From contig DAINBB010000002.1 in the NCBI GenBank assembly GCA_036733165.1, positions 8,223 through 72,222 on the forward strand: DNA of 64,000 nucleotides, written 5' to 3'. The stretch comes from Halobacteria archaeon (lineage in GTDB: Archaea; Methanobacteriota_B; Thermococci; Methanofastidiosales; NM3). The position numbers and the translations under genes are program-made. Shown here piece by piece: positions 1,792 through 44,752 of this stretch (position 1 is the stretch's first letter; each line of letters begins with the position of its first letter). Below the pieces are notes generated by a model. The model searched no databases. It saw only the letters and a list, made by a program, of their open reading frames with translations, and had not been told where the DNA came from.

Positions 1792-2245
1792 CCAACGGAA
1801 GGAAGTAACTGATAAAGATAATGCCAAACAAGAATCCCGTGACAAGTCTCAACTCATTGGTGCTCTCCCGAAACCCCGCAAGCTGGGTGACCCCGTCGAC
1901 AGCAAGTGGGACGAGGGAAAGCAGGACGACCTTGAAGTCAGGGATTCTTGGATTTTCTATTTTATTGTATATAGGCATCAGGAACGTGCCTATGAGCAGC
2001 CCCAGATATATGCCAAAACATCTGGAACATACCGCCATCTTCTCGCCAAAGATGAACAACGATCGCTCCACCCTCTGGTGGCAGACGGTGCGATAGACCG
2101 AATAAAGGTTGTCCGAAGTGGCATCCAGCCCCCACGACTTCAAGAGCGGGGCGGATATTATGCCCATGAGCCAGACTATCTCCGCGCCCAGGGCCAGCAG
2201 GTAGACGGTCCTCATCCGCATATGGTAATAGGTGTGGAACGCCAT
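1763..2245 (-). CDS. DUF2085-family membrane protein
   Basis: 160 aa with a CHQ..RS....MAVCSRCFGIY motif typical of DUF2085, flanked by TM helices. Confidence 0.55.
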   Translation of the reverse strand: MAFHTYYHMRMRTVYLLALGAEIVWLMGIISAPLLKSWGLDATSDNLYSVYRTVCHQRVERSLFIFGEKMAVCSRCFGIYLGLLIGTFLMPIYNKIENPRIPDFKVVLLSLVPLAVDGVTQLAGFRESTNELRLVTGFLFGIIFISYFLPLVIVRLGQSE

Positions 2246-28116: not shown

Positions 28117-28125
28117 ATGAATCCC

Positions 28126-29793: not shown

Positions 29794-29835
29794 AATATAG
29801 ATATATATAAAAATTATAAAAAGGTTTTTACTTCT

Positions 29836-30504
29836 ATGAAAGAGGAAAAAGAGAAGAGAATGGTGGGGGTCTACGCATCCAAATTTGTCAAAGACGGACA
29901 GGTCATCGGACTTGGCACTGGAAGCACCGTTGCATACTTTGCAGAGGCGTTGGGTGAAAGGATTCTCAATGGAGAAAGTTTTCTTGCTGTTCCAACCTCA
30001 TATCAATCAATAGATCTATGTAAAAAATATGGAATTACCTTAACAACGCTGGATGAACACCGCCCAGAATGTGCATTTGATGGTGCCGATGAAGTGGATA
30101 AGAGCAATAATCTTATCAAGGGGCGTGGCGGGGCCATGACTCAAGAAAAGATAGTAGACTATTATTCAAATGAATTCTTTGTTCTTGTGGATAAATCAAA
30201 ACTAGTTAAGATACTAGGTTCTAACTTTCCTCTACCAATTGAAGTGATCCCCAAGGCCATAAAACCGGTTATAGATAAATTATCCGAAATGGGGAGTCCC
30301 ATGGTAAGGCCTGCAATAAATAAGGACGGTCCAGTGATTACCGATAATGGTAATTTTATCGTTGACCTAAAAACAATAATAAAAAATCCAAAAGAAATGG
30401 AAATTAATATAAATAATATACCAGGGGTCGTGGAGAATGGCATTTTTACACGAAAATGTAAAATAATAGTGCCAAATGACAACGACATCATTGATGTTAT
30501 TTAA
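29836..30504 (+). CDS. rpiA: ribose-5-phosphate isomerase A
   Basis: GLGTGSTVAYF and DGADEVD motifs. Confidence 0.8.
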   Translation: MKEEKEKRMVGVYASKFVKDGQVIGLGTGSTVAYFAEALGERILNGESFLAVPTSYQSIDLCKKYGITLTTLDEHRPECAFDGADEVDKSNNLIKGRGGAMTQEKIVDYYSNEFFVLVDKSKLVKILGSNFPLPIEVIPKAIKPVIDKLSEMGSPMVRPAINKDGPVITDNGNFIVDLKTIIKNPKEMEININNIPGVVENGIFTRKCKIIVPNDNDIIDVI

Positions 30505-30518
30505 CATCAATAACATCA
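30492..30518. promoter_or_regulatory. perfect 10 bp inverted repeat TGATGTTATT-N7-AATAACATCA overlapping the rpiA stop codon
   Basis: Read directly from the sequence. Lies upstream of the coiled-coil wHTH gene and shares the GATGTTAT core with repeats at 31250-31287. Confidence 0.5.
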
Positions 30519-30540
30519 CCGTTTATAATTAATTAGAAAA

Positions 30541-31242
30541 TTGTCTTTTTTTTTAGATTTAATCAATAATTATAAATTATTCGATAACATCATCGAAAAC
30601 TATTTATTATATCATATATTACTATACCTCATGGGATTACTATCTGCTCTTGGATTGAAAAGAAATGATGACAAGCTAGAACAAGAAATCACAAAATTGA
30701 AGGAAACTGTAGAAATACAAAGTCAACAGAATATTGAAGGAATAAGAAATGATATAAGATCTCTGTTTTCAGAAGTTCAGAATATAAAGACTGGACTCAA
30801 GGACTGTTCATCAGGGATTGAGAAAAGTGAATTTAAAATATCCAAACTAGCCGAAAAGATGGTAGAAATCGAAAATAATATGCTAAAAGTTGTATACAGA
30901 GACGAAATCGACTTAATAAAGAAAGAATTCGATTATATACAGGAAGATATTAAAAATATAAAAGAATCACAAGCGAAAATCACTGATAAAGTGATTAATT
31001 TTGCCTTAGATAAAGGCAAAAGTACCAATGTTGAACCCTCAGAAAGTGTGATTTTAGAACCATTAACCGATTTTGAAAAAGAAGTCCTTTCAGAATACAA
31101 AAATGATATCACTTCGGACGCCATAGTTAAGGATACTGGCATGTCCAAAGGGCACATTTCAAGAACTCTGAAAGGCCTCTATAAGAAAGGATATCTTTCC
31201 AGAAAGAGAAAAGGTAAAGAATATATATATTACAAAAAATGA
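30541..31242 (+). CDS. coiled-coil protein with a C-terminal winged-HTH (MarR/TrmB-like)
   Basis: Long heptad-rich central region, and a C-terminal ..DTGMSKGHISRTLKGLYKKGYLSRKRKGKEYIY wHTH. The start codon is uncertain. Confidence 0.45.
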   Translation: MSFFLDLINNYKLFDNIIENYLLYHILLYLMGLLSALGLKRNDDKLEQEITKLKETVEIQSQQNIEGIRNDIRSLFSEVQNIKTGLKDCSSGIEKSEFKISKLAEKMVEIENNMLKVVYRDEIDLIKKEFDYIQEDIKNIKESQAKITDKVINFALDKGKSTNVEPSESVILEPLTDFEKEVLSEYKNDITSDAIVKDTGMSKGHISRTLKGLYKKGYLSRKRKGKEYIYYKK

Positions 31243-31249
31243 TAAGAAT

Positions 31250-31287
31250 GACATCGATGATGTTATTGTGATATCATTGATGTTATA
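31250..31287. repeat. two direct copies of an 18 nt motif (GACATCGATGATGTTATT / GATATCATTGATGTTATA) that also occurs at 30484-30501
   Basis: Direct reading: 30484 GACATCATTGATGTTATT; 31250 GACATCGATGATGTTATT; 31270 GATATCATTGATGTTATA. Confidence 0.6.
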
Positions 31288-31696
31288 ATACATCATCAAG
31301 AATTGTTATCATTTTTTTTCTCATATTTTGAAATGTACGTTCACTTTCACTTTCTTTGGCATCCTTCAATAATTCGAGCAATTCGATGTAAATATCGATG
31401 GATTCAACCGGGATCAGGTTCGCGTATATACCTAAAATGAAGGTGGCCATTGACTTGTCGATGTTGGCTTTTGCTAAGCGAATGTTATCCGATATCGCTT
31501 GTTTTGTAACTAAACGGTGCTCAGCAATGTCTTGTACTGTCACAGAATCTCCAAATTCCTTGTTCCAAATATAAGAAACGTAATCTTTTAGCTGTATTTT
31601 ACTAAAAAAACTGATTTTCATTAATTTATTAGCAAAATAATCAGAATCTAACCATTTATCTATATAATTATATGAGTATTTCATGAAATCATCCAA
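31283..31696 (-). CDS. hypothetical protein with a putative HTH
   Basis: 137 aa. VTVQDIAEHRLVTKQAISDNIRLAKANI looks like an HTH. Confidence 0.35.
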   Translation of the reverse strand: MDDFMKYSYNYIDKWLDSDYFANKLMKISFFSKIQLKDYVSYIWNKEFGDSVTVQDIAEHRLVTKQAISDNIRLAKANIDKSMATFILGIYANLIPVESIDIYIELLELLKDAKESESERTFQNMRKKMITILDDVL

Positions 31697-31788
31697 GTCA
31701 AGGCATTTTACTTGACAAGTATATTTCAGAAGACTATTTAAATATTATCATAATCTTATAGTTATATAATTTTCAATATACTAGGTAT

Positions 31789-32274
31789 GTGAATTCTATG
31801 AAGAAGGTTTATCTTAATTGGACTAAGGTGGACGAAGCCATCTGGACTCTAAAGGATGAGATATGGAAAGAATTCGTTCCAGACATCATTGTTGGTGTGG
31901 CCAGGGGCGGACTAATACCTGCAGTGAGACTATCACATATAACAAACAACACTTTGATGAGAGTTGTAGATGTCAAGTTTTATACAGATATAGAAAAAAG
32001 AACTGAAAAACCTACCATTACTGTCCCTTTAACTGAAAATATCACTGATCTCAACGTTTTAATCGCTGATGACGTAGCAGATACAGGAAAAACGTTAGTA
32101 GAGGTCAAAAAACACATTAAATCATTAAATCCTAAGAAAATTAAGGTGGCCGTTATAGCAAAAAAGCCTCAAAGCATAATTGATCCAGACTATTATGTAT
32201 TTGAAACGGACAAGTGGATTATATTCCCCTGGGAAAAGATGCCCGTTGAAAGGGGAAGTGGAGAAATGGTATGA
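31789..32274 (+). CDS. type I phosphoribosyltransferase (purine PRTase-like)
   Basis: PRPP-binding motif VLIADDVADTGKTL. Confidence 0.55.
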   Translation: MNSMKKVYLNWTKVDEAIWTLKDEIWKEFVPDIIVGVARGGLIPAVRLSHITNNTLMRVVDVKFYTDIEKRTEKPTITVPLTENITDLNVLIADDVADTGKTLVEVKKHIKSLNPKKIKVAVIAKKPQSIIDPDYYVFETDKWIIFPWEKMPVERGSGEMV

Positions 32275-32822
32275 CAAGGTTATTTGTAGCGATAAATCTA
32301 GACGATGAAATAAAAAAGACCATTGTGTCCATAGATGATCTATTTTCAAAAAGTAGCATAAATGCAAAATTCACATCCCCTGAAAATATGCACATGACTT
32401 TGAAGTTTATTGGTGAATGGCCCTTCAATGATGTTAATGATGTCATCGATATCCTCAATGATGTCAAGACATCATTCAAGCCTTTCAATGTCGATTTCGA
32501 AGGAATTGGGGGATTCCCAAATGATCATGCTCCTCGTATCATATGGGTTGGTGGAAAATCAAGGACATTGGTCGATATGGCAGGTAAAATTGATAAAAAT
32601 CTATCAACGTTGGGTATAAAAAAGGAAAATAGGCCCTTCTCCTCCCATATAACCTTGGCAAGGGTAAAAAATATCTTGAATAGAGATGATATCATTAACA
32701 TCATTCATGCCAATAAAGATGTCGCCATAGGCAGCCAACATGTCACGGAGTTCTGTCTCAAGAAAAGTGAATTGACCCCAAATGGGCCAATATATTCTGA
32801 TGTGGAGGTATTTACCCTATGA
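32271..32822 (+). CDS. thpR: RNA 2',3'-cyclic phosphodiesterase (LigT/ThpR, 2H family)
   Basis: Two H-x-T/S-x motifs (HMTLKF, HITLAR). Start overlaps the upstream gene by 4 nt. Confidence 0.75.
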   Translation: MTRLFVAINLDDEIKKTIVSIDDLFSKSSINAKFTSPENMHMTLKFIGEWPFNDVNDVIDILNDVKTSFKPFNVDFEGIGGFPNDHAPRIIWVGGKSRTLVDMAGKIDKNLSTLGIKKENRPFSSHITLARVKNILNRDDIINIIHANKDVAIGSQHVTEFCLKKSELTPNGPIYSDVEVFTL

Positions 32823-34060
32823 ACATGGAAGAGGTCTTAAGATTAATAGTCCCTGATCAGGAAGAAAAGGAAGAGGCCCTGAAAAAATATGGAGAAGTAT
32901 CTGACTACATAGAAAAGAGATTCGGAAGAGAAACCATCCTAGTGGGGTCGGTTGCCAAAGATACCTTCCTAAAGGGAGACAAAGACCTTGACATATTCGT
33001 TTACTTCAATATTGATGAAAAACGCGAGGAGATGGAGAAAGAAGCCCTGCTGATTGGCAAATCGGTGTTTGAACATTTTGGGAATGAATACCAAGTTGAA
33101 TATGCCGAACACCCTTATGTATCGGGGATCGTCGATGGATATGATATAGAGATCGTGCCCTGCTACAAGATCAAGAATGCTCACAACATAATCTCAGCGG
33201 TAGATAGAACGCCATTCCATTTGTCATTTGTCAAAGACCATCTGAGAGACTGCCAGAAAGATGATGTCAGGCTGCTCAAAAAATTTTTAAAGGCACAAAA
33301 AATGTACGGCGCCGACTCAAAGGTCAATGGATTCTCGGGATATCTATGCGAACTGTTGATAATACATTATGGTTCCTTCGAAGGATTGGCAAGGTCGGCC
33401 ATTAATTGGGAAGTAGGGGAAACGATAGAGTTTTTAAGGCCAGTCAATGTGTTTAAAGACCCCCTGATCATTATTGATCCCGTTGATCCAAATCGCAATG
33501 TGGCTTCCCCGGTATCCTTGGACACGTATTCAAGATTCGTGCTGGAATGTAAGAGATACTTTGACACGAAGGACGAGGGCATGTTCGCAGGGCCCGAGAT
33601 GGGTTATGAACCCATTGAAGGCGGCAGGTTGATCGTCATCCAGGTCGATATGGACGTGCTTGAAGATATTTTTTATTCCCAATGTAGAAAGTTTCTTGCC
33701 ACAATCAAAAGGTCCTTCAAGAGCGAGGGATTCACTTTGTATAGGTCAGGCATATTCTCCAAAGGTCTCGTGCTGGACATCGAGACTGGGGACCTGCCTA
33801 CCATAAAGAAACACATGGGGCCAAGGATTGGCAATGTGGAGAACATGCAAAGATTCCTTTCGAAGAATAGATGCGTCTTTGCAGAGGGGGGACATCTCTT
33901 CTCCTTCAGAGAGAGAAGATACAATGATGTCATTGATGTCATCAATGATATTATAAAAGATAAGGTAGGGATGGGAAATCATCTTAAAAAGGCAAATTTA
34001 AAAATATTATCAAAAGAAAGTGCATATTTATCTATAAAAGATGAAATTATTTATTATTAA
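32819..34060 (+). CDS. cca: CCA-adding tRNA nucleotidyltransferase (archaeal class I)
   Basis: GSVAKDTFLKGDKDLDIFV polymerase-beta-like motif. 413 aa. Start overlaps the upstream stop. Confidence 0.8.
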   Translation: MNMEEVLRLIVPDQEEKEEALKKYGEVSDYIEKRFGRETILVGSVAKDTFLKGDKDLDIFVYFNIDEKREEMEKEALLIGKSVFEHFGNEYQVEYAEHPYVSGIVDGYDIEIVPCYKIKNAHNIISAVDRTPFHLSFVKDHLRDCQKDDVRLLKKFLKAQKMYGADSKVNGFSGYLCELLIIHYGSFEGLARSAINWEVGETIEFLRPVNVFKDPLIIIDPVDPNRNVASPVSLDTYSRFVLECKRYFDTKDEGMFAGPEMGYEPIEGGRLIVIQVDMDVLEDIFYSQCRKFLATIKRSFKSEGFTLYRSGIFSKGLVLDIETGDLPTIKKHMGPRIGNVENMQRFLSKNRCVFAEGGHLFSFRERRYNDVIDVINDIIKDKVGMGNHLKKANLKILSKESAYLSIKDEIIYY

Positions 34061-35177: not shown

Positions 35178-35411
35178 TCACTTTGATAGATTGCTGAGGG
35201 CAACAGTATATAGCGCTATTAGCAAGTCCTGATTCTCCTCTGCATCTCCGACCAGCGCCGATGCCGCGATCTGTTTGAGGGCGATGCACTTTATCATTGC
35301 CATCCTAACGGATTCGGTCTCGTTGTCCTTGAGCTTTATACCATTAAGGTCGAATATATGCTTGATGTTCTGCCTGTCGGTCTCTGCAATTTCATCTGGT
35401 GTCATTTCCAT
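35178..35411 (-). CDS. small hypothetical protein
   Basis: 77 aa ORF in the otherwise empty gap upstream of the deacetylase-like gene. Confidence 0.3.
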   Translation of the reverse strand: MEMTPDEIAETDRQNIKHIFDLNGIKLKDNETESVRMAMIKCIALKQIAASALVGDAEENQDLLIALYTVALSNLSK

Positions 35412-35549
35412 TTATAAGTCACCTTTTGCCTTAGGTATCCTCTGGGTTATATTAAATTTTTCCATAAGATTTTTAAATTCTGCAAAACGGGTTACTTCAG
35501 CCGTCGGGATACTATTAATAAATTATTTATTGTGTAGTTCTCATACTGT

Positions 35550-36236
35550 GTGGAGAAAATGCTTTCTTTAGGAACGTCATTCTATGAGCTCATAGGGGCA
35601 ATAGCCTTGATCCTGATAGTTTTTACAATATTATTGATAGTGTTCGGATTGATACAGCTCATGATCTCCATGAGGATAAACAAGTTCATATTTCCTAATC
35701 TTCAGTCTTTTCTGGTGGATACATTCTATTCCGTGTTTGAGAGCGCCTTCGGCATTTTCAATGTTCCCTCCGACGTGTTGGAAGAGTGGAGCATAACTCT
35801 CAAGAATCATGCGAACCGGGAGCACTTCATCAAGGTCCCGGTTTCTAAAAGGATAGTGGTGTTGCCCCAATGTCTTAGATCCATAAACTGTCCAGCGAAT
35901 CTGTCTGCAAAGGATGGCATTCGATGTCTTGATTGCGGGAGATGTATGATAAAAGAGTTCAGGAAAAGGGCAGAGGAGCTTGGCTACAAGGTCTTCGTGG
36001 TCCCTGGAGGGACCTTTGTAAAACGGATCATCAAGAAAGAAAGGCCCGAAGCCGTGATAGGTGTCGGTTGCTTTCCCGACCTCGTGGAGGGGATGAAGAT
36101 ATCAAAACGGGCCGGTATAGCATCCCAAGGAGTGCTGTTAGAGACCAGCGGGTGCATCGAGACCATCATAGAATGGAGCAAATTGTATGAAAAGTTATAT
36201 CTTGGATTAGATATAAATAAGGAGGTCATCGCTTGA
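35550..36236 (+). CDS. DUF116-family membrane protein (conserved Cys pairs)
   Basis: N-terminal TM helices, then LRSINCPANL...CLDCGRCMIKEF and a conserved C-terminal block typical of DUF116. Confidence 0.5.
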   Translation: MEKMLSLGTSFYELIGAIALILIVFTILLIVFGLIQLMISMRINKFIFPNLQSFLVDTFYSVFESAFGIFNVPSDVLEEWSITLKNHANREHFIKVPVSKRIVVLPQCLRSINCPANLSAKDGIRCLDCGRCMIKEFRKRAEELGYKVFVVPGGTFVKRIIKKERPEAVIGVGCFPDLVEGMKISKRAGIASQGVLLETSGCIETIIEWSKLYEKLYLGLDINKEVIA

Positions 36237-36754
36237 GAAGGTTAGGATTGTGTCTTGTCCTGATCATAATATCCTTTTCACTCATCTATGTTGGTGCCAT
36301 GGAACAGGACGTTAAAAGATCACGGAACATATCTTCAGCCCTCTGCCTAGCATGTCTGGGCATAACGAACACGTTCGAGGATAAGCTCATCATCGACGAC
36401 CTTACGCGCATCCAATATTCTGGAATCGACAATGATGTCACCATCTATATCTATTCCACTGAGACCTGCACCACCTGCCCCCATGTGATAGAGATGTGCG
36501 AAGAGATGGAGAAGTTCTCAGATAGGATAACTGTGGAAGAGATAAAGCTGGAAGAGGACGAAGAGAAGTTCTATGAGATGGCAAACGAATACGGTGTCGA
36601 GGTCAGCCAAGGGGTGCCTTGGATAACAATAGACAATGGCACTGAAACAATCACATGGAGATATGAGGAGTATCTCGATGGGTATCCCAAGAACAATGAT
36701 CCAAGATTCATTACGCAAGTTATCGACATGGTGATAAAGTTTGGAACGGCGTAG
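36233..36754 (+). CDS. secreted thioredoxin-fold protein with a CxxC motif
   Basis: Signal peptide (MRRLGLCLVLIIISFSLIYVGA), then IYIYSTETCTTCPHV. Start overlaps the DUF116 stop. Confidence 0.5.
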   Translation: MRRLGLCLVLIIISFSLIYVGAMEQDVKRSRNISSALCLACLGITNTFEDKLIIDDLTRIQYSGIDNDVTIYIYSTETCTTCPHVIEMCEEMEKFSDRITVEEIKLEEDEEKFYEMANEYGVEVSQGVPWITIDNGTETITWRYEEYLDGYPKNNDPRFITQVIDMVIKFGTA

Positions 36755-39008
36755 GATAAAGAGAATGGCATCCGTCTTTCTAACAAAGACGGCCCTCATG
36801 GCTGGCCTTATCATTATGGTCAGCATGCCCATTCTTAGCTTGCTAAACATAGTGGAAACGGCCGTCTACTCGATAAACGTCCTAGTGCCGGCATATGTGG
36901 GGTTCGTCATTGTATTGGTCGCCGTCACCAAAATCTTCAGAAAGAGACGTTCTTTTTTCCAGATGTCTTTCCTTGGGGCGTCCGTGCTCGCTGTTCTCGC
37001 CGCCGTTGATATGGTCTACGATCCAGCCTTAACTGAACTTAGTGCGGTCAGGGGCACCATATTCTTCCTGTTAATAGTTGCCTTCGTCTCGTTCCTCATC
37101 CTTATAGCGTTTAAATCGTTGTCCAACAAAAGACGGGTATACCAGTCCTTCTCATTGGTATTGTTTAATCTCGGCGCATTTGGGATAGTTGTCAAGCACC
37201 TGGTTGCTCCCGGGCTCAACTGCTATGCTTGCCCTTGGGCAAGCGCTGGATGCCCAATAGGCCTATTACAGAACTGGATCATTATGGGAGAAGTACCGTA
37301 TTATCTGATCGGGAGTTCGATGGCCGTGTTCACTCTCTTTGGGAGGGCGTTCTGCGGTTGGGCCTGCCCCTTTGGTTTCCTACACGATATCATGGACACG
37401 ATTACCTCAATAAGATTCGGTAGAAAAGATATCAATAAGTTGCTGAGGGTAAAGAGCAACGACCCTTGGAAAGACAGGGCGGGTGTCCTGAGCTACCTCA
37501 CAAGGTCCATCGTGCTGATTGTGCTGATTGTGGCCGCCTGGAATTATTCGGCAACGTGGTTTTGCAAGCTATGCCCCGCAGGATTTATAGAGGCCGCCCT
37601 GCCATACAGGCTGAGCCATACCGTGACACCAGATCCGCTTTATGTCTTCAGGGTCGTGATATTCTTCTCCCTCATGATGATAACGCTGATAATATCGAGA
37701 TTTTGGTGTAGATATTTCTGCCCATTGGGGCACCTGGCAGGCCACTTCAACAGGGTTTCCATGTTAAGGTTAGAGCTGGATGAGGAAAAATGCAACAATT
37801 GCGGGCTTTGCGGAAAGGCATGCCCCATGGACTTGAAGCCAGATTTCTTCCTGAAAAAGGAAAGGGAACCCGACAGTGACGTGTTCACAAAGGTCAAGAA
37901 CATGATCAAGAAAGAACGCTCGAACTGCATCCTTTGCGGCGAATGCGTAGAGAAGTGCCATCATGATGCCCTGAAACTCACTTTCCTGCCCTCTGCTGCC
38001 ACCGGAAGCATAAAGATGGCACAGAACATAAGGGACAAGTTCCTAGGTGAGATAGAGAGCTCTGGCAACAAGCTCATCAAGAACGTTCAGAGCGAACTCG
38101 GGCCGAAACCGGAAAGGGCATCGCCCCTGTCGGACGATGATGGTGAAGCTCAGAGGTGGGAGAAGGGCATGGGGCGAACCCCCTACCCAAGAAGGACTGT
38201 TCAGAAACCTGGGAGCGGTGCCTATAACTGGCCTTTCCCCGTGTCCATCTATGTTATATATAAGTCCGTGACCGAGATCCCTAAGATGGTCGATCATCTG
38301 AAATCGAGTCCAGGGTATTCTGTCAGGTTCATGGGGATCTTTGAAGATGACAGATATTACAAATTCTATAATTCTGTGTACAATGGGTTCATCGAAACGC
38401 CGATCATATACGTCAACGGGCAGCTATATCTCGGTAATCTAGAAGACAGCAACGAGCTGTTGCAATTCGTTGAAGATGTCCAGGACACCTACAAGGATAT
38501 ATACATCTATTGTAATTCCGATAATTGCATGGAAGGACCAAATAGCAATCTCCTGAGAAACGCTATCGGGGACATGTTGCTAACACGGGGCGAACAATAT
38601 CCATTGACCTTGTTCAGGACCGAGTCGCCGGGGGCTCTGATATCCGCATGCCTCCCCGGGACGCTATATGCCTTATATGGGAAGAGTTCCCATTCAAGCA
38701 AAAAACTCTCAGATTATATCAGATACAAGGTCAGCGAACATGACGAGAAAGAGCTTGATTCTTTCGCGAACATACCGATGACCAGAATAGAGCTCTACAT
38801 GAAAAAGGACGACGATCTCTCCAACGAACTTTTGAACATCGTGGCGAAGGCTTCCTACCATTCAGGCGGGAAATTGAGATTCAGGATCACAGAATGGGAC
38901 AATAGCATTCCATCAATGGTCATCAACGGCAACGAACTTCCAAAACGATACTATCCTACATCATACAATACCCTATTGATGATGATACGAAAATATGGTA
39001 GAATGTGA
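36741..39008 (+). CDS. NapH/MauN-like polytopic ferredoxin membrane protein fused to about three C-terminal thioredoxin/glutaredoxin-like domains
   Basis: TM region carrying CYACPWASAGCP, FCGWACPFG, FCKLCPAGF and WCRYFCPLG motifs. A 2x[4Fe-4S] domain follows (CNNCGLCGKACP...CILCGECVEKC). Then Trx-like segments (IYIYCNSDNC..., PIIYVNGQLYLG, MVINGNELP). Confidence 0.55.
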   Translation: MERRRIKRMASVFLTKTALMAGLIIMVSMPILSLLNIVETAVYSINVLVPAYVGFVIVLVAVTKIFRKRRSFFQMSFLGASVLAVLAAVDMVYDPALTELSAVRGTIFFLLIVAFVSFLILIAFKSLSNKRRVYQSFSLVLFNLGAFGIVVKHLVAPGLNCYACPWASAGCPIGLLQNWIIMGEVPYYLIGSSMAVFTLFGRAFCGWACPFGFLHDIMDTITSIRFGRKDINKLLRVKSNDPWKDRAGVLSYLTRSIVLIVLIVAAWNYSATWFCKLCPAGFIEAALPYRLSHTVTPDPLYVFRVVIFFSLMMITLIISRFWCRYFCPLGHLAGHFNRVSMLRLELDEEKCNNCGLCGKACPMDLKPDFFLKKEREPDSDVFTKVKNMIKKERSNCILCGECVEKCHHDALKLTFLPSAATGSIKMAQNIRDKFLGEIESSGNKLIKNVQSELGPKPERASPLSDDDGEAQRWEKGMGRTPYPRRTVQKPGSGAYNWPFPVSIYVIYKSVTEIPKMVDHLKSSPGYSVRFMGIFEDDRYYKFYNSVYNGFIETPIIYVNGQLYLGNLEDSNELLQFVEDVQDTYKDIYIYCNSDNCMEGPNSNLLRNAIGDMLLTRGEQYPLTLFRTESPGALISACLPGTLYALYGKSSHSSKKLSDYIRYKVSEHDEKELDSFANIPMTRIELYMKKDDDLSNELLNIVAKASYHSGGKLRFRITEWDNSIPSMVINGNELPKRYYPTSYNTLLMMIRKYGRM

Positions 39009-40408
39009 CCGATATTGGACAATATGTCAAAAATGACAATGTTTATAAATTTAGTAAGATATTGTTCAATGGCGATAAAACCATGAAAAGGACCAAAGTC
39101 ATAATCCTTGGGGCCGCGGGTAGGGACTTCCATAACTTCAATGTTTTCTTTAGGGATAATCCATCCTATGAGGTGGTGGCCTTCACGGCGGCACAGATCC
39201 CGGACATAGAGAAAAGATATTATCCAAAGGAGCTCTCGGGCGAGTTATACCCTAATGGAATACCCATACATCCGGAAGATGATCTTGAGGAGTTGGTTAG
39301 CAGATACGGGGCCGAAGAGGTGATAATGGCATATTCCGATCTTCCTCATGAGAAGGTGATGCAGCTTGGCTCCAGGGCCCTGGCCGCGGGTGCAGACTAC
39401 AGGCTGATGGGACCGGGGTCCACGATGTTGAGGTCCAAGAAACCCATAATCTCGGTATGTGCCGCCAGAACCGGCAGCGGGAAGAGCCAAGTGTCCAGGA
39501 AACTGGCGTCCATCCTCAAGAGGATGGGACTCAAGGTGGTTGTCATCAGGCATCCGATGCCATATGGTGTTCTGAGAAAGCAGGCGTGCCAGAGATTCGA
39601 GACATATGCCGATCTCGAAAAAAACGAATGCACGATAGAGGAGAGGGAGGAATATGAACCCCATATAGACATGGGCACGATCGTCTATGCGGGAGTTGAC
39701 TATGGACTAATTTTGGCAGAGGCCGAGAAAGAGGCAGACGTGATAATATGGGACGGAGGGAACAACGATTTTTCATTTTATCGCTCTGACCTGTACATTG
39801 TTGTGGTCGACCCCCTGCGCTCTGGGAACGAACTGACATACTATCCCGGGGAGACGAATGTCAGGATGGCAGACCTATGCATCGTGAACAAGGTGGACAC
39901 CGCCTCCGGCGATGAGGTGCTGAGGGTGATCAACAACATCTACAACCTCAACCCCCGGGCAAGGATAATCGAGGCCGCATCCCCGATATCCGTGGACGAC
40001 CCGTCCCTGATCAAGGGAAAGAGGGTGTTGGTGGTGGAGGACGGACCTACGATCACGCACGGCGGCATGAAGTACGGAGCAGGTTACATCGTGGCGAGGA
40101 AGTACGGCGCCAAGGAGATAGTTGACCCAAGACCTTATCTGGTGGGGTCGTTGGAGCGGACGTTTAAGAAGTACCCCCATATAGAGAACGTCCTGCCTGC
40201 CATGGGATACAGCGAAGAACAGGTAAGGGACCTGCAGGAGACCATCCGCAACGTGAAATGCGACACCGTCGTCGCAGGGACCCCCATAGACTTGGATAGG
40301 ATAATGGAAATAGGGAAACCCCATGTGAGGGCGCATTACAGGCTCGATGAGATCGGCGACCTGAATCTGGAAGATGTCGTGCGGGAACTATTCAAAAACA
40401 AGGGATAG
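39005..40408 (+). CDS. P-loop protein resembling cyclic 2,3-diphosphoglycerate synthetase (tentative)
   Basis: N-terminal Rossmann-like GAAGRDFHNF, then a Walker A (ARTGSGKS). About 460 aa. GTG start overlaps the upstream stop; an alternative ATG is at 39083. Confidence 0.4.
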   Translation: MTDIGQYVKNDNVYKFSKILFNGDKTMKRTKVIILGAAGRDFHNFNVFFRDNPSYEVVAFTAAQIPDIEKRYYPKELSGELYPNGIPIHPEDDLEELVSRYGAEEVIMAYSDLPHEKVMQLGSRALAAGADYRLMGPGSTMLRSKKPIISVCAARTGSGKSQVSRKLASILKRMGLKVVVIRHPMPYGVLRKQACQRFETYADLEKNECTIEEREEYEPHIDMGTIVYAGVDYGLILAEAEKEADVIIWDGGNNDFSFYRSDLYIVVVDPLRSGNELTYYPGETNVRMADLCIVNKVDTASGDEVLRVINNIYNLNPRARIIEAASPISVDDPSLIKGKRVLVVEDGPTITHGGMKYGAGYIVARKYGAKEIVDPRPYLVGSLERTFKKYPHIENVLPAMGYSEEQVRDLQETIRNVKCDTVVAGTPIDLDRIMEIGKPHVRAHYRLDEIGDLNLEDVVRELFKNKG

Positions 40409-40947: not shown

Positions 40948-41017
40948 ATCCGACAAATAGGAGGGTGAACTTCCCTTTTTGGAGTATAATTATAAACTTT
41001 CAATTTATATAGGAATT

Positions 41018-44000
41018 ATGTCCAGTGACGACGATGGCCCCGACCCGCTTACCATACTCTACGTAGATGACGAAGAGGAATTCCGGGAACTCACAAAACG
41101 ATATCTCGAGCGCAAGGGCGATGTCATCGTGCACACGGCCGCATCTGCCGCCGAGGCGTTGAACATGCTTCGAAAACGTTCATATGACGCGATCGTGTCC
41201 GACTATCAGATGCCAAGGATCGACGGTGTGGAATTTCTTAAAAAGCTCCGCTCCTCCGGAGACAACAGCCCGTTCATCCTATTTACCGGCAAGGGCAGGG
41301 AAGATGTGGCGGTAGAGGCCTTTGAGAGTGGTGCCGACCACTATCTGCAAAAGGGGGGAGACCCGCGACCGCAATATGCGGAACTCCTGCACAAGGTGCA
41401 CCAGACCGTGAGATTGAACAAGGCGAAGCATGCGCTTTGGGAAAGCGAGAAGCGCTATCGAAGATTGTTTCAAGAAACCCCCCTGGGCATAATCAACTAT
41501 GACACCCATGGCACCATACTCGATTGCAACAAGAGATTTGTGGAAATAGTTGGTTCTTCAAAAAAGGAACTGTTGGGCCTCAACATGATAAACGACCTTG
41601 TTAACAAGGACGTGATAGAAGAGATCAAGAAATCCCTGAAGTCTGGAAAGGGGTATTACGAAGGTTTGTATACCTCCATGACGGCAGGCAAGACCACGTC
41701 ATTAAGGGCGATTTTCAAAGGCATAAAAGATACCAACGGAAGGATATATGCAGGATTGGCGCTTATAGAGGATATCACAGAAAGGTCAAAGATAGAGAAG
41801 GACCTGCGGGAGAGCGAAAGGAAGTACCGTACCATAATCGAAAAGACCCCAGTGGGCCTTCTTAAATTCAAAATGTCCCCGGAAGGCATTTTTTATCCCG
41901 CCTTCATCAGTAACAATATCGCCTCCTTCACCGGCGTTTCCACAAGTGAGGCATATGAGGATATCAACAATCTGATAGAGCATATACACCCTGATCACCG
42001 TGATATGATCTACAACAAGATGAAACATGCAGAGCATAACATAGGATATGACGAGTTCACCATCGCATGCAATGCAAAGGATGGCCTGAGGTGGCTCGAT
42101 GTGCGTGTTACCCCATCAAGGGAGGAAGACGGGACCCTTGTCTGGGACGTGGTCTTCATGGACATCACGGAACGGAAGAACGCCGAGGAAAAGTTATCAT
42201 CACTGGCCACAGAATACGAGACCGTGTTCACAGGCACCCAAGATTCGATGTTCCTGGTGGAGGTTGTCAGTGATGGGTTCAGGTATATAAGGACGAATAA
42301 GTCGCACCAGGAAAGCACGGGGTTTACTCTCGATGACATTATGGGAAAGACCCCACAGGAGCTCTTGGGCAAGCGCATGGGCGATGTCATCGCGTCCAAC
42401 TATCGGCGCAGCATAGACACCAAGGGTCCAGTGACCTATAAGGAAACGCTTGATCTGCCAGCCGGGAAGAAGATATGGAGAACAACGTTGACGCCTGTGT
42501 TCGAGAATGGAAGAGCCAGATATATAGTGGGCTCAAGCCAGGATGTCACAGAACACGAGAATGCGCTGGAGGCCCTTGCACAGACGGCCGATAGGCAACA
42601 GGTGCTGCTTGACAACATCGACATGCAGGTCTGGTACATGACCGATGAACATACATATGGTATGGTGAACGAGGCGCATGCGGCCTTCTGCTGTATGCGT
42701 AAAGAGGACCTGGCATATAAGGATATACGCGAGGTCTGTCCGAAGGACATATCAGGGTTCTTTCAACAATCCATTGAAAAGGTGTTCTCAACCGGCATAA
42801 GGGAGAGGGGGGAGGTCTGGGTGACAAACAAATCTGGAGAGAAACGTCTCCTGCTGATGACCAAATCGCCCAAGGCCAACGCCAACAGTTCGGTGAAATA
42901 TGTGATCTGTACTGCGGAAGACATAACTGAGTACAGAGAGGCGGAAGAGAACGCCAAGGCCAGCGAGATGAAGTACAGGTCGCTTGTCGAGAATCTCAAC
43001 GATGTCGTTTACATCCTCAATGAAAAAGCGGAAGTGGCCTATATCTCGCCCAACATAGAGGCGATAGGCGGATACCCGGTGTCAGAGATCCTGAACAAGA
43101 GCTTCATCAATTTCGTCCATCCCGAAGACAGGATCAATAGGACAGAACAATTTCTGAAGGTCCTCTCTGGTGTCAATGAACCTACCGAATACAGGTTTTT
43201 GAAAAAGGATGGCAGTATCGTTTGGGTGAGGACTACCGCCCGACCGATCGTCAAGGGGGGCCGTGTGGTCGGGGTACAGGGAGTGATAATAGATATCACA
43301 GAAAGAAAGTATGCTGAACAGGCACTGAGGGAAAACGAAATCAAGTATCGTACCCTTTTCGAGGATTCCAGAGATGCAATATGGTTCACATCGTCCGAGA
43401 ACCGTGTCATGGAAGCAAATTCTGCGGCCTTCAAGCTTCTTGGTTACCCCAGGAAGGAGTTCATCGGGATAGATGCCAAACGCCTGTATGCCGAACCTTC
43501 TGACCGGGAGAAGTTCCTCGAGCGCATCCTCGAGAACGGTTTCGTGAAGGACTATGAGGTAAGGCTCCGACACAAGGACGGGAGCGTTGTCCTCTGCGCA
43601 TTCACGTCGCACGTTTGGAGAAACGAACAAGGCGACATACTTGGTTACCGTGGCATCGTCAGGAACATCACGGAGAGCAGGCGCGCAGAAGAGGCGCTGA
43701 GGGAGAGCGAGGAGAAATATCGCCTTATCACTGAGAACACTGCCGACAACATAAGCTTGCTGGACTTTTCACTAAGTGTCGTGTATACCAGTCCCTCGAT
43801 AGAGAAGATACGCGGCTATTCAGTTGATGAGTCTGTGGGACAGACGATAGACGACATAATGACACCAAGATCCAGAGAGGATGTCCTGGCCCTTTTCTCT
43901 GAACAGATGATGCTAGAGTCGTCCGGCACTGCCGATCCAAATCGTTCCTTCACCATCGAGGTGGAGGAATATCACAAGAACGGCTCTATCGTGGATGTGG

Positions 44001-44752
44001 AGATCACCCTCTCTTTCATGCGTGACGCGGATGGCAGGCCGACCGGCATAATCGCCGTGTCCCGAGACATAACCGAGCGCAAGCGCGCCGAGAGGGCATT
44101 GAATCACGCCAATAAGAAACTCGCCATACTTTCAGGCATCACCAGGCATGACGTGAACAACAGGCTTACGGCGCTCATGGGGTACCTGGAGCTCTCGCTG
44201 TGCACGGTGTCCGATGGGGCGCTACGCAAATACCTAGAAAGGGTGAAGAACGAGGCGCTGACCATACGCGAACAAATAGCGTTTACCAAGAAATACGAGG
44301 AAATAGGGGGAATGGATCCCAACTGGCAGGACATCTCCGGGCTCTTCACATCGCTCCCGCTCCCGGAAGGAACCGAGAAACCGAGATCCTGCAAAGGTAT
44401 CCTAGTCTATGCAGACCCCATGCTGAAGCAGGTCTTCATCACCCTCCTTGACAACTCCCTCCGTCATGGCCAGACCGTGACCAAGATAACCCTCAGGTGC
44501 GGGGAAACGGATGCCGGCCTTTTGGTATATTGGGAAGACAACGGCATAGGCATCCCCGAAAGCGATAAGGAACGTATCTTCGAGCGGGGATATGGGACCA
44601 ATACGGGGCTCGGCCTTTTCCTCGCCAAGGAGATACTCGAGATCACTGGCATCTCGTTCAGGGAGACCGGGATTCCCGGGAAGGGCGCCAGATTCGAATT
44701 CCTGGTGCCCAAGGGCCAATATCGCATGGTTGATAATGCCCCTGGTCGATGA
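41018..44752 (+). CDS. hybrid sensor: N-terminal response-regulator receiver, about 8 PAS/PAC domains, HisKA-like dimerisation domain, HATPase_c
   Basis: REC motifs (ILYVDDEEE...DAIVSDYQMPRIDG...K). Repeated ..DITERK..E..LRESE.KYR PAC endings, seven by my count. H-box ITRHDVNNRLTALMGYLEL. G-box EDNGIGIPE....GTNTGLGLF. Confidence 0.75.
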   Translation: MSSDDDGPDPLTILYVDDEEEFRELTKRYLERKGDVIVHTAASAAEALNMLRKRSYDAIVSDYQMPRIDGVEFLKKLRSSGDNSPFILFTGKGREDVAVEAFESGADHYLQKGGDPRPQYAELLHKVHQTVRLNKAKHALWESEKRYRRLFQETPLGIINYDTHGTILDCNKRFVEIVGSSKKELLGLNMINDLVNKDVIEEIKKSLKSGKGYYEGLYTSMTAGKTTSLRAIFKGIKDTNGRIYAGLALIEDITERSKIEKDLRESERKYRTIIEKTPVGLLKFKMSPEGIFYPAFISNNIASFTGVSTSEAYEDINNLIEHIHPDHRDMIYNKMKHAEHNIGYDEFTIACNAKDGLRWLDVRVTPSREEDGTLVWDVVFMDITERKNAEEKLSSLATEYETVFTGTQDSMFLVEVVSDGFRYIRTNKSHQESTGFTLDDIMGKTPQELLGKRMGDVIASNYRRSIDTKGPVTYKETLDLPAGKKIWRTTLTPVFENGRARYIVGSSQDVTEHENALEALAQTADRQQVLLDNIDMQVWYMTDEHTYGMVNEAHAAFCCMRKEDLAYKDIREVCPKDISGFFQQSIEKVFSTGIRERGEVWVTNKSGEKRLLLMTKSPKANANSSVKYVICTAEDITEYREAEENAKASEMKYRSLVENLNDVVYILNEKAEVAYISPNIEAIGGYPVSEILNKSFINFVHPEDRINRTEQFLKVLSGVNEPTEYRFLKKDGSIVWVRTTARPIVKGGRVVGVQGVIIDITERKYAEQALRENEIKYRTLFEDSRDAIWFTSSENRVMEANSAAFKLLGYPRKEFIGIDAKRLYAEPSDREKFLERILENGFVKDYEVRLRHKDGSVVLCAFTSHVWRNEQGDILGYRGIVRNITESRRAEEALRESEEKYRLITENTADNISLLDFSLSVVYTSPSIEKIRGYSVDESVGQTIDDIMTPRSREDVLALFSEQMMLESSGTADPNRSFTIEVEEYHKNGSIVDVEITLSFMRDADGRPTGIIAVSRDITERKRAERALNHANKKLAILSGITRHDVNNRLTALMGYLELSLCTVSDGALRKYLERVKNEALTIREQIAFTKKYEEIGGMDPNWQDISGLFTSLPLPEGTEKPRSCKGILVYADPMLKQVFITLLDNSLRHGQTVTKITLRCGETDAGLLVYWEDNGIGIPESDKERIFERGYGTNTGLGLFLAKEILEITGISFRETGIPGKGARFEFLVPKGQYRMVDNAPGR

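Follow-up and report, generated by a model that had tools for sequence, protein, structure and literature searches.

We found a conserved core that consists of a NapH-like polyferredoxin, whose outer loops carry five additional cysteines, and an adjoining or fused extracytoplasmic thioredoxin fold. We consider it somewhat probable (roughly 0.55) that this pair is an Fe-S-based functional analogue of DsbD/CcdA, which would pass cytoplasmic electrons to an outward-facing thioredoxin. Our literature search found no published description of a pairing between NapH-like proteins and extracytoplasmic thioredoxins.

Organization of the operon

The window analyzed here, a 64,000-nucleotide stretch of DNA, comes from a Candidatus Methanofastidiosa MAG. 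The original prediction described three same-strand genes with overlapping or coupled starts at 35550-39008, and our check of the ORFs located them exactly there. All features are on the plus strand:

35412..35549, +, candidate archaeal promoter of the operon: AT-rich upstream intergenic region whose sequence shows TATA-like stretches (e.g. TTAATAAATT near 35514)
35550..36236, +, gene 1, DUF116 protein, 228 aa from GTG 35550 (PF01976 match)
35865..35945, +, gene 1 Cys-rich insert, PQC108LRSINC114P...C126LDC129GRC132 (invariant columns, alignment A5)
36233..36754, +, gene 2, membrane-anchored extracytoplasmic thioredoxin-fold protein, 173 aa, two invariant CxxC
36242..36298, +, gene 2 N-terminal signal-anchor or TM helix, aa 4-22, MRR just before (hydropathy)
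36344..36355, +, gene 2 membrane-proximal C38-L-A-C41, consensus C-x-[AS]-C-[LVI]-G (alignments A2, A4)
36467..36478, +, gene 2 invariant active site C79-T-T-C82(-P) (alignments A2, A4)
36741..39008, +, gene 3, NapH-like polyferredoxin, 755 aa; its cytoplasmic C-terminal part is a Grx-like / relic-ferredoxin / Trx-like array
36741..37115, +, gene 3 N-terminal extension, aa 1-125, about four TM helices
37119..37745, +, NapH-like 4-TM core, aa 127-335 (TIGR02163 and Fer4_5; E. coli NapH alignment A3)
37221..37256, +, outer-loop motif 1, C161-Y-A-C164-P-W-A-S-A-G-C171-P, between core TM1 and TM2
37353..37370, +, canonical CX3CP motif 1, C205-G-W-A-C209-P, cytoplasmic side past core TM2
37563..37577, +, outer-loop motif 2, C275-K-L-C278-P, between core TM3 and TM4
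37707..37724, +, canonical CX3CP motif 2, C323-R-Y-F-C327-P
37773..37982, +, cytoplasmic 2x[4Fe-4S] domain, aa 345-414, C351/354/357/361 and C396/399/402/406 (Fer4, Fer4_10 matches)
37992..38225, +, non-hydrophobic linker, aa 418-495, disordered after a long charged helix (AF2, hydropathy)
38241..38492, +, D1 (501-584), glutaredoxin-like fold b-a-b-a-b-b-a
38499..38771, +, D2 (587-677), relic dicluster-ferredoxin domain, C591, C596, C637 ('CNSDNC')
38781..38996, +, D3 (681-752), thioredoxin-like fold

The stop codon of gene 1 and the TTG start of gene 2 share the tetranucleotide TTGA, with a Shine-Dalgarno-like GGAGGT 7 nt before it. Gene 3 may begin either at TTG 36741, with a 14-nt overlap with gene 2, or at ATG 36765, leaving a 10-nt spacer past the gene 2 stop and yielding 747 aa, as in the database entry P0001. 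The database copy of gene 1 (P0110, 100% identical) starts at ATG 35559 and has 225 aa. The operon is kept in related MAGs at a protein identity of 43-60%.

The small anchored thioredoxin

Gene 2 had been proposed to encode a secreted thioredoxin-fold protein with a CTTC motif, and this assignment is borne out by the N-terminal hydrophobic anchor, by C79/C82 and by its orthologs, which clear the Pfam cut-offs (Thioredoxin_9 28.0 bits vs 25; Thioredoxin 26.4 vs 23.5), the Trx/Grx matches of gene 2 itself being sub-cut-off. The most frequent form of the active site among homologs is W-C-x-[ST]-C-P. Placement of the domain outside the membrane agrees with the bacterial fusions of the type signal peptide-TlpA-TM hairpin and with fusions in which the module follows a ferredoxin domain and a TM helix. 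The protein also has a second CxxC, C38/C41, which was not mentioned earlier and is invariant in 19/19 aligned homologs.

The NapH-like membrane core

NapH-like proteins have been described as modular conduits that carry electrons through the membrane to a redox partner outside the cytosol (Meheust et al. 2021, PMC8238504). Like NapH/MauN/NosR/PceC (Fer4_5, PF12801), gene 3 combines a 4-TM core, CX3CP motifs after TM2 and TM4, and a C-terminal 2x[4Fe-4S] domain; the profile searches returned two Fer4_5 matches and the 2x[4Fe-4S] domain at residues 345-414, whose eight cysteines are invariant and to which all PDB sequence matches of gene 3 are confined. The AF2 model of the membrane core is of low confidence (pLDDT about 50), and the topology was read from hydropathy and the positive-inside pattern, which put the CxxCP loops outside, with the ferredoxin domain and the C-terminus on the inner side.

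The earlier description of a NapH-like domain with a 2x[4Fe-4S] ferredoxin thus stands, but its four CxxxCP-type motifs fall into two classes. One class, C205x3C209P and C323x3C327P, is the canonical pair of NapH motifs and is conserved universally, its first member being invariant in all homologs examined, E. coli NapH included. The other two lie in the outer loops and contribute five cysteines, none of which is present in E. coli NapH: motif 1 is kept in the window's clade, in A2 and B, in Methanofastidiosum and in bacterial and Bathyarchaeial cores, and is absent from the aligned E. coli NapH and Theionarchaea; motif 2 (C275xxC278P) is likewise absent from E. coli NapH. Gene 3 further differs from NapH by its cytoplasmic Grx-like / ferredoxin / Trx-like array and by the four extra TM helices of its clade, an extension that Theionarchaea, Methanofastidiosum and bacterial cores lack.

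NapH/MauN is the top named family match of gene 3 (TIGR02163, E 4e-21), which would be expected of an ordinary quinol dehydrogenase subunit serving a periplasmic reductase, with the thioredoxin gene as an unrelated neighbor. We regard this as very improbable: the match scores 75.6 bits vs a curated cut-off of 213, neither the window operon nor any of the nine loci for which gene calls were listed contains a gene for NapG, NapA or another reductase, and the adjacency of the thioredoxin gene is far above chance. To our knowledge, Methanofastidiosa are not quinone makers either.

Linkage of NapH-like proteins and thioredoxins across lineages

We surveyed 85 NapH-like loci, 18 with at least four of the five outer-loop cysteines and 67 controls without them. 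A Trx-fold gene lies within 1.5 kb in 16/18 of the former and in 1/67 of the latter (Fisher p = 3e-14; p = 4e-9 with one count per lineage), the HMMs used for detection having been seeded from the neighbors themselves, yet still detecting more distant TlpA-like genes in controls. A relaxed search of the control loci still found no adjacent thioredoxin. The pairing spans eight archaeal and bacterial lineages, and the pair is translationally coupled in the differing genomic contexts of Methanofastidiosum, Theionarchaea, a 'Thermococci' MAG and Bathyarchaeia.

The partner is always an extracytoplasmic Trx fold, although its type varies. In archaea it is the 2xCxxC module; in Thermotogae and Bipolaricaulota this module is embedded in larger periplasmic proteins (signal peptide, TlpA-like domain, TM hairpin) adjoining the NapH-like gene; a TlpA/AhpC-TSA-like or Thioredoxin_7 protein substitutes for it in Dehalococcoidia and an MCG archaeon. 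"Rosetta-stone" fusions link the two proteins covalently: P0042-P0046 comprise the NapH-like core, the ferredoxin domain, one TM helix and the 2xCxxC Trx module (E 3e-9 to 3e-6), and in P0041 and P0047 a TlpA-like domain (E 1e-11) follows the core, ferredoxin domain and TM helix. In Hydrothermarchaeota loci the outer-loop cysteines are partly lost (C164 to S) and the Trx neighbor is absent. Theionarchaea have lost all five outer-loop cysteines but keep a Trx partner with both CxxC motifs, hence a relay through the outer loops is not universal.

Comparative genomics, by adjacency and by fusion, therefore upholds the proposed transmembrane redox link between the NapH-like protein and the thioredoxin, but not the roles assigned in it to DUF116 and to the C-terminal Trx folds. 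In ancestry, the pair is a NapH-like conduit with an extracytoplasmic thioredoxin partner in place of the NapG or flavinylated FMN-binding domain of other such conduits; in gene 3 neither FMN_bind nor FixG_C was matched in the profile search.

DUF116 and the C-terminal array

Gene 1 matches PF01976 (E 1.2e-46) and has seven invariant cysteines (C108, C114, C126, C129, C132, C174 and C202) in an alignment with 54 homologs, as anticipated for a DUF116 membrane protein with conserved Cys pairs. It has a long N-terminal TM helix and a flavodoxin-like alpha/beta domain (AF2 pLDDT 92.5), and comparison with PDB folds gave no significant match. The Cys-rich insert is probably a metal or Fe-S site.

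If the three genes formed an obligate module, DUF116 would belong to its core, and gene 3 would use its three C-terminal Trx domains as relay stations for thiol-disulfide exchange. Translational coupling, joint conservation in the window's clade and the invariant cysteines of DUF116 speak in favor of such a scheme. Nevertheless, it is largely contradicted and we give it little credence. DUF116 homologs at four other archaeal loci have no adjoining Trx or NapH-like genes, the three-gene arrangement was not found at any examined locus beyond the window's clade, and the wider conserved core comprises two genes only. From its sequence and context, DUF116 appears to be a clade-specific accessory, membrane-anchored, Cys-rich and flavodoxin-like, linked to the pair only in the window's own clade, rather than an integral member.

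The C-terminal array argues in the same direction. Neither hydropathy nor AF2 revealed a TM segment in the linker between the ferredoxin domain and D1 (pLDDT <50 for residues 438-495), hence the array is cytoplasmic. Two of the three predicted Trx/Grx-like segments, D1 and D3, do have such folds, but without redox cysteines. D1 carries the Grx-like motif T-P-I-I-Y-V-N-G-Q-x-Y-x-G, with TEIP replacing the active-site CxxC, and has no cysteine at this position in any lineage examined. D3 retains a conserved cis-Pro-like P734, and its CxxC position reads D-D-L-S in the window, where the site has the form SxxS; clade B and most Theionarchaea have S-x-x-C, the closest approach to CxxC in any lineage examined. 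D2, the third segment, is a degenerate dicluster ferredoxin: it matches Fer4_10 end to end (E 5e-5), the C-terminal profile also matches genuine Fer4 domains, and of the 8-Cys pattern of Methanofastidiosum and Theionarchaea (CxxCx4Cx3C...CxxCxxCx3C) the window protein keeps three. The 'CNSDNC' motif is a vestige of Fe-S ligands. Compared with archaeal and Aquifex protein disulfide oxidoreductase (PDO; 1j08, 2ayt, 2hls, 1a8l) and the AhpF N-terminal domain, which are among the closest known systems, the array lacks both CxxC active sites and has a ferredoxin-type domain lodged between its two units. The array of the window protein is most likely a docking or regulatory module for a cytoplasmic donor.

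Proposed function of the pair

In the DsbD/CcdA-like scheme that we favor, the NapH-like protein would take electrons from a presumed cytoplasmic donor via its 2x[4Fe-4S] domain and the two CX3CP sites, and in relatives D2 would lengthen this chain by one or two further clusters. Electrons would cross the 4-TM core, and with it about 30 A of membrane, to the five outer-loop cysteines (C161xxC164P...C171P, C275xxC278P), which, if redox-active rather than metal ligands, could reduce C38xxC41 of the anchored thioredoxin by thiol-disulfide exchange. C38xxC41 would in turn reduce C79xxC82 of the same protein, which may serve envelope clients such as TlpA/peroxiredoxin-like proteins or Cys-bearing surface proteins.

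We infer the outward, reductive direction by analogy, because the partners resemble TlpA/CcmG/cDsbD (W-C-x-x-C-P; AhpC-TSA/Redoxin E 1e-21; Thioredoxin_7) and not DsbA, because a TrxR-like flavoprotein gene heads the Methanofastidiosum operon, and because the clusters are expected to be of low potential. Low-potential [4Fe-4S] chains favor the reduction of disulfides; in ferredoxin:thioredoxin reductase and heterodisulfide reductase, for example, one-electron Fe-S carriers reduce a disulfide. Both enzymes are soluble or cytoplasm-facing, and the likeness is chemical, with no homology claimed.

Electrons could instead flow inward, the outer-loop CxxC pairs re-oxidizing an anchored DsbA-like thioredoxin, as DsbB/VKOR do, and delivering electrons to the Fe-S chain and then to a cytoplasmic acceptor; quinone-free anaerobes could then form disulfides. 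The four-helix core, where one outer loop has a CxxC and the other a Cys pair, does parallel the DsbB/VKOR topology and likewise has an extracytoplasmic Trx-fold partner, and a surface protein encoded in the same window, which combines a Trx-like domain and numerous paired cysteines, might need disulfides. We consider this unlikely, since the partner types and the TrxR-like gene noted above speak against it and ferredoxin-type clusters are, on thermodynamic grounds, poor electron acceptors in thiol oxidation. Gene 3 is also non-homologous to DsbB/VKOR, and its cofactor would be Fe-S rather than quinone. The argument that no DsbB/VKOR is evident in the window carries no weight, as this is only a 64-kb fragment.

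The three outer-loop 'CP' motifs could equally be Fe-S or metal ligands, and with the four invariant cysteines of the partner they could form metal sites. CcoG, a cupric reductase of the NapH-like superfamily, has a substrate other than a respiratory reductase, and the pair might similarly reduce an extracytoplasmic metal ion or sulfur species. The outer loops and both CxxC motifs of the small protein would then bind or chaperone that species, much as Sco or TlpA-type copper chaperones do. Some TlpA-like neighbors have weak SCO1/SenC matches (2e-7). However, the partners match AhpC-TSA/Redoxin/Thioredoxin far better, the CxxxC-plus-His signature of Sco is missing, gene 3 differs from CcoG/FixG in lacking FixG_C and in its thioredoxin partner, and we know of no obvious copper enzymes in these strictly anaerobic hosts; such chemistry seems to us quite improbable.

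In the DsbD/CcdA-like reading, the pair would do the same job as DsbD/CcdA/ScsB, bringing cytoplasmic reducing power to extracytoplasmic Trx folds, with the same partner types (TlpA-like, Thioredoxin_7; known partners are TlpA, ResA, CcmG and cDsbD), and the bacterial fusion proteins recall the modular layout of DsbD (Trx module, beta-sandwich with a Cys pair, TlpA-like domain). Gene 3 is nonetheless unrelated to DsbD/CcdA in sequence, and PF02683, the DsbD transmembrane family, was not matched in the profile results for the three window proteins. Whereas DsbD/CcdA use Cys pairs only and receive electrons from thioredoxin, gene 3 has predicted Fe-S clusters and presumably takes single electrons. 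The recurrence of this pairing in eight lineages suggests that electrons reach the cysteine chemistry of the cell surface by a transmembrane route not described before.

Organization of the operon

The original prediction, made without database searches, placed three genes with coupled starts on one strand, and the ORF listing bears out their positions:

35550-36236, same strand as genes 2 and 3: gene 1, DUF116 protein, 228 aa
36233-36754, same strand as genes 1 and 3: gene 2, small anchored thioredoxin (Trx), 173 aa
36741-39008, same strand as genes 1 and 2: gene 3, NapH-like polyferredoxin, 755 aa

The coupling holds for the first pair, where the stop codon of gene 1 overlaps the TTG start of gene 2 in the tetranucleotide TTGA (with a GGAGGT site 7 nt upstream), while for gene 3 it depends on the codon chosen: TTG 36741 gives a 14-nt overlap with gene 2, and ATG 36765 leaves a 10-nt spacer after its stop. 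A downstream ORF, which would be 467 aa long if it began at GTG 39005 overlapping the stop of gene 3, was considered as a fourth coupled gene and rejected. Its homologues are 441–447 aa long and a TATA-like element (TTTATAAA) precedes ATG 39083; both suggest that the ORF starts at ATG 39083 behind its own promoter, so that the operon comprises three genes. Rfam and tRNA scans gave no match within or close to it. Proteins identical to those of the window are labelled Candidatus Methanofastidiosa archaeon in public data, and the entire neighbourhood is syntenic in relatives, with protein identities of 43–60%. The flanking genes are as follows:

35178-35411, minus strand: divergent 77-aa ORF upstream of the operon, no family match
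39083-40408, plus strand: P-loop protein of ~441 aa, weak cobW/HypB-like match (E 2.6e-5), no NCBIfam family
40979-44752, plus strand: 1257-aa response-regulator/histidine-kinase-like ORF with many repeated sensor segments

The position of the divergent ORF is kept in the related loci L001, L002 and L003 (77–82 aa). The P-loop gene, whose TATA-like promoter probably lies at ~39043, directly follows the operon in L001 and L003; the kinase-like ORF separates the region of the P-loop gene from the M42 peptidase genes, and L001 and L003 have no gene at that place. The GC content dips at 28001-34000 of the window (0.32–0.41 vs ~0.48–0.55 elsewhere), with its minimum at 30–32 kb, where genes for a ribose-5-phosphate isomerase and a MarR-like HTH protein lie; no RNA genes were found in the dip.

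Membrane half of the NapH-like protein

NapH/MauN is the best named family for gene 3, yet the score of 75.6 bits falls short of the TIGR02163 cut-off (213.05), and the NapH model NF007013 gives 50.8 bits against a cut-off of 234. Fer4_5 motifs occur twice in gene 3, together with a dicluster ferredoxin domain at residues 345–414, and the NapH-type architecture is present: a core of four transmembrane (TM) helices, two CX3CP motifs and a C-terminal 2x[4Fe-4S] domain with 8 invariant Cys. The motifs C205x3C209P and C323x3C327P align with those of E. coli NapH. These features would agree with a plain NapH quinol dehydrogenase; against this reading stand the sub-threshold scores and the lack of NapG-type partners, as neither the window operon nor the related loci carry genes for NapG/MauM or for a periplasmic reductase or dehydrogenase; the neighbours encode Trx-fold proteins.

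The topology predicted from hydropathy and the positive-inside rule is N-in, with four clade-specific TM helices (aa 1–125) ahead of the four-helix NapH core. The canonical pairs C205/C209 and C323/C327 and the ferredoxin domain then lie on the cytoplasmic side, and two outer loops carry C161xxC164P...C171P and C275xxC278P, which are missing from E. coli NapH in the alignment. Hence, only two of the four CxxxCP-type motifs originally described are canonical NapH motifs, and the other two consist of outer-loop cysteines foreign to the E. coli protein. In a per-clade comparison, all five outer-loop Cys are fully kept in the window clade and its sister A2, in clade B and in Methanofastidiosum, and none is present in Theionarchaea. 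The AF2 model of the membrane half is poor (pLDDT ~50), and a PDB sequence search with gene 3 returned only ferredoxin-domain matches and no solved homologue of the membrane core. One database homologue, P0013 (658 aa), is out of register over residues ~140–210 and lacks its C-terminal end; a frameshift or misassembly probably underlies this gene call, which was left out of the profiles.

The small anchored thioredoxin

Gene 2 starts with MRR followed by a hydrophobic anchor. Its own family scores are weak (TIGR02187 E 3e-8; Pfam Trx/Grx E ~0.01, below cut-off), and its orthologues exceed the Pfam cut-offs for Thioredoxin and Thioredoxin_9. The Trx fold with a CTTC motif was recognized correctly from the start: among 19 archaeal and bacterial homologues only five columns are invariant, namely G21 in the TM helix, C38, C41, C79 and C82, and a "VP" ahead of strand 3 marks the cis-Pro loop, so that both the C79xxC82 pair and this loop are as in the thioredoxin superfamily. 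A membrane-proximal motif, C38xxC41-[LVI]-G, which had been overlooked, is as conserved as C79TTC82.

Linkage of NapH-like proteins with thioredoxin folds

A small Trx gene of this type lies immediately upstream of the NapH-like gene, overlapping or abutting its start, in a "Thermococci" MAG, in Theionarchaea and in Methanofastidiosum; DUF116 is missing there, and the other neighbours are unrelated. When species-representative genomes were scanned, 80 NapH-like loci emerged, and at each we recorded the five outer-loop Cys and any neighbouring Trx-fold genes with HMMs built in this analysis. A Trx-fold gene was found within 1.5 kb at 16/18 loci with at least four of these cysteines vs 1/67 loci without them (Fisher p = 3e-14; 4e-9 with each lineage counted once). 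Even with relaxed thresholds, the control loci had no adjacent Trx at E <= 1e-3, only TlpA-like genes at 1.6–2.8 kb and one marginal match (E 0.015) 81 nt away from the core gene. The two exceptions that have the Cys pattern without a Trx neighbour are from Hydrothermarchaeota, in which C164 is replaced by Ser.

The partners vary. In Bathyarchaeia it is the same 150-aa Trx module, in an MCG archaeon a TlpA-like protein and in Dehalococcoidia Thioredoxin_7 (cDsbD-type) proteins; in Thermotogae (~342 aa) and Bipolaricaulota (~695 aa) the module forms the C-terminus of a larger protein. The rest of this larger bacterial protein is made up of a signal peptide, a TlpA/AhpC-TSA-like domain (E 1e-21), a beta-sandwich containing the motif YCIxxxCFQ and a TM hairpin. 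The sandwich-containing fusion proteins are encoded at three loci:

L013, 2908-4998
L015, 2905-4986
L020, 1397-3493

Flanked by the TlpA-like domain on one side and the TM hairpin on the other, and bearing a conserved Cys pair, the sandwich recalls the N-terminal Ig-like domain of DsbD; Pfam DsbD_N gave no match in these proteins, and only weak NPCBM_assoc matches were seen, in the Thermotogae versions. Both partners also occur fused in one chain: the database proteins P0042-P0046 consist of the NapH-like core, the ferredoxin domain, one TM helix and then the TM-CxxC-Trx module, and in P0041 and P0047 the core, ferredoxin domain and TM helix are followed by a TlpA-like domain. The entity of interest, a Trx paired with a NapH-like protein bearing outer-loop Cys, is narrower than the one originally proposed and far more widespread, in archaea and deep-branching bacteria.

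The DUF116 protein

Gene 1 belongs to DUF116 (PF01976, E 1.2e-46, 158.4 bits vs a gathering threshold of 25), and seven Cys (C108, C114, C126, C129, C132, C174, C202) are invariant in an alignment of 54 homologues. In the AF2 model (pLDDT 92.5), a flavodoxin-like alpha/beta domain follows a long TM helix at the N-terminus. Foldseek found no significant match in the PDB, only generic flavodoxin-like, CheY-like and B12-binding-domain folds (best E 0.018), from which no function can be derived, and a literature search returned mostly papers on "DUF1162" of VPS13.

In the original prediction, DUF116 is part of a possible three-gene thiol relay. The tight overlap of genes 1 and 2 and the invariant Cys agree with such a role; among the loci related through the NapH-like protein, though, only those of the window's own clade have DUF116 alongside, and at four other archaeal loci its neighbours are unrelated (e.g. 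aminotransferases, MOSC, MobB/FeS, lipoate ligase), with no Trx or NapH-like gene beside it. Thus DUF116 is co-transcribed here and lies outside the conserved core, as a lineage-specific addition. One homologue lacks the N-terminal TM helix:

L048 (Bathyarchaeia MAG), 1272-1832, minus strand: soluble form of DUF116

This soluble form supports a cytoplasmic location of the Cys-rich DUF116 domain. Judged by sequence, its gene adjoins a lipoate-protein-ligase-like gene.

The C-terminal array of the NapH-like protein

A non-hydrophobic, partly disordered linker (residues 418–495) leads to a C-terminal array of three successive domains, D1, D2 and D3, modelled confidently over residues 500–755 (AF2 pLDDT 83–92). 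Its best PDB matches are multi-Trx proteins, namely PDI, calsequestrin, ERp44 and archaeal PDO (Foldseek E 2.5e-4 to 3e-3, probability 0.99). D1 (501–584) has the order b-a-b-a-b-b-a and a Grx-like TP...NGQxYxG motif, with TEIP at the CxxC position and no Cys at the active site in any lineage examined. D3 (681–752) is a short Trx fold with DDLS at this position (SxxC in clade B and most Theionarchaea), weakly related to D1 (hhalign E ~3e-5). The array thus has the two tandem Trx-fold units of PDO (TIGR02187), but not a redox-active CxxC in each, which no lineage possesses.

D2 (587–677), which holds the CNSDNC motif, has a different origin. In Methanofastidiosum and Theionarchaea all 8 Cys are present, in the pattern CxxCx4Cx3C...CxxCxxCx3C, and the alignment to Fer4 dicluster profiles extends from end to end (positions 2–52 of 53 in Fer4_10, E 5e-5); the profile of the C-terminal array also cross-matches genuine ferredoxin domains. 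In clades A2 and B the survivors are precisely C1, C2, C3 and C8, the full ligand set of a single cluster in a dicluster ferredoxin, and of the 8 Cys the window protein retains only C596 (C1) and C637 (C8), with C591 new. The array is therefore a PDO-like arrangement on the cytoplasmic side: two redox-dead Trx folds and, inserted between them, a ferredoxin domain, which decayed in the window lineage. Of the three Trx segments proposed earlier, D1 and D3 are upheld as folds by structure prediction, and D2 has to be given up; with no CxxC in D1 and D3 and with a D2 homologous to ferredoxins, the array is not a set of three thiol-active Trx domains. The array is a lineage-specific addition whose redox residues are lost in this genome. 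It is also rare: a phmmer search with the C-terminal 260 aa against 1.8 billion representatives retrieved just 4 proteins and revealed no other architectures.

Companion genes

At several related loci the NapH-like ORF overlaps at its 3' end with an ORF for an undecaprenyl-diphosphatase (UppP/BacA), when ORFs are taken from their first potential start codon:

L006/L007, 8070-8846
L010, 7049-7825
L013, 5764-6528
L014, 3383-4165
L015, 5752-6510
L020, 4256-5020

The trio of Trx, NapH-like and UppP genes recurs in Methanofastidiosum, Thermotogae and Bipolaricaulota, which hints at a link to envelope biogenesis; UppP is absent from the window operon. The Methanofastidiosum operon (L006, 3140-8846; L010, 2122-7825) has a much richer envelope thiol set than that of the window: besides the anchored 2xCxxC Trx, UppP and a NapH-like protein whose D2 has all 8 Cys, it encodes a TrxR-like flavoprotein at its head and two lipoproteins, a PDO-like double-Trx of ~240 aa and a Trx of ~210 aa. 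Another candidate lies in the window, 6 kb from the operon:

28126-29793, minus strand: signal-peptide protein of 555 aa with a Trx-like domain on the extracytoplasmic side (WDSTC51ADC54; Thioredoxin_2 below cut-off at E 2.8e-5)

The Trx-like domain is followed by about five helical repeats, most of which have Cys in pairs (ITCSQRIIKC and VSYCNSQIQKC, for example); a TM helix and a tail on the cytoplasmic side complete the chain. It is plausible that this protein is a client or partner of an envelope thiol system.

Proposed function

Three independent lines of sequence analysis put the Trx module on the outer side of the membrane, and the ferredoxin domain and the C-terminal array on the inner side: charge and hydropathy; the larger bacterial partners, where the module comes after a signal peptide, a periplasmic TlpA-like domain and two TM helices; and the fusions with a single TM helix between the cytoplasmic ferredoxin domain and the module. 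The best-supported reading of the pair is a putative Fe-S-based transmembrane conduit to an anchored thioredoxin. The cytoplasmic Fe-S chain of the NapH-like protein would receive the electrons, and its core would carry them across to the outer-loop cysteines; thiol-disulfide exchange would then hand them to C38/C41 and next to C79/C82 of the thioredoxin, which would serve envelope clients. We infer a reductive, outward flow from the TlpA-, CcmG- and cDsbD-like partners, from the TrxR-like flavoprotein that heads the Methanofastidiosum operon with its two lipoprotein Trx/PDO-like proteins, and from cluster chemistry, as low-potential clusters favour disulfide reduction. An oxidative DsbB/VKOR-like role would employ the same cysteines in the opposite direction, and these three points speak against it. 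The main points against the conduit are the Theionarchaea, which retain the Trx partner without any outer-loop Cys, the unreliable AF2 membrane model, and the CP-type outer-loop motifs, which could instead be metal ligands, as might suit a metal or sulfur reductase.

The failed NapH/MauN cut-off and the lack of NapG, FMN or DsbD features make the system a member of no named one. In published work, NapH-like proteins (PF12801) figure as modular conduits across the membrane whose partners are flavinylated FMN domains, NosR and PceC being examples, and DsbD is listed as the conduit for thioredoxin-like partners (PMC8238504). The window system differs from the former in having no FMN-binding domains (FMN_bind and ApbE had no match in the three proteins or flanking genes) and from DsbD/CcdA in having no DsbD-type domain (PF02683 is absent from the Pfam matches of all three proteins at E <= 1); it is linked genomically to TlpA/ResA/cDsbD-like partners, and its likeness to the latter would lie in function. 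It would thus be a NapH-like conduit by ancestry and a DsbD/CcdA analogue by function. That this is not a described system agrees with our literature searches, in which no paper linked NapH-like proteins to thioredoxin, TlpA, ResA, CcdA or DsbD partners, and those on Methanofastidiosa with thioredoxin, PF12801 and CcdA in archaea did not describe the pairing. Overall, the original observation was largely right and its interpretation half right.

To our knowledge, only two kinds of membrane electron carriers for extracytoplasmic cysteines have been described: the thioredoxin-fed cysteine relay of DsbD/CcdA/ScsB and the quinone-linked DsbB/VKOR. With slightly less than even odds (roughly 0.45), NapH-like proteins with outer-loop Cys and Trx partners constitute a third, Fe-S-based class for extracellular thiol-disulfide chemistry, independent of both and supplied with electrons at the level of ferredoxin, not thioredoxin, in anaerobic archaea that are poor in quinones (Methanofastidiosa, Bathyarchaeia and related groups) as well as in deep-branching bacteria (Bipolaricaulota, Thermotogae, Dehalococcoidia). 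This hypothesis lends itself to direct testing, since there are natural fusions, the cysteines are defined and simple complementation assays exist. The redox control of extracytoplasmic cysteines in strict anaerobes and archaea is a poorly understood field, for which such a class would represent a mechanistically different solution, with one-electron Fe-S carriers meeting two-electron disulfide chemistry across the membrane. If true, it would also assign a function to widespread genes annotated only as "4Fe-4S binding protein" and extend the modular-conduit view of NapH-like proteins from flavin to thioredoxin partners.
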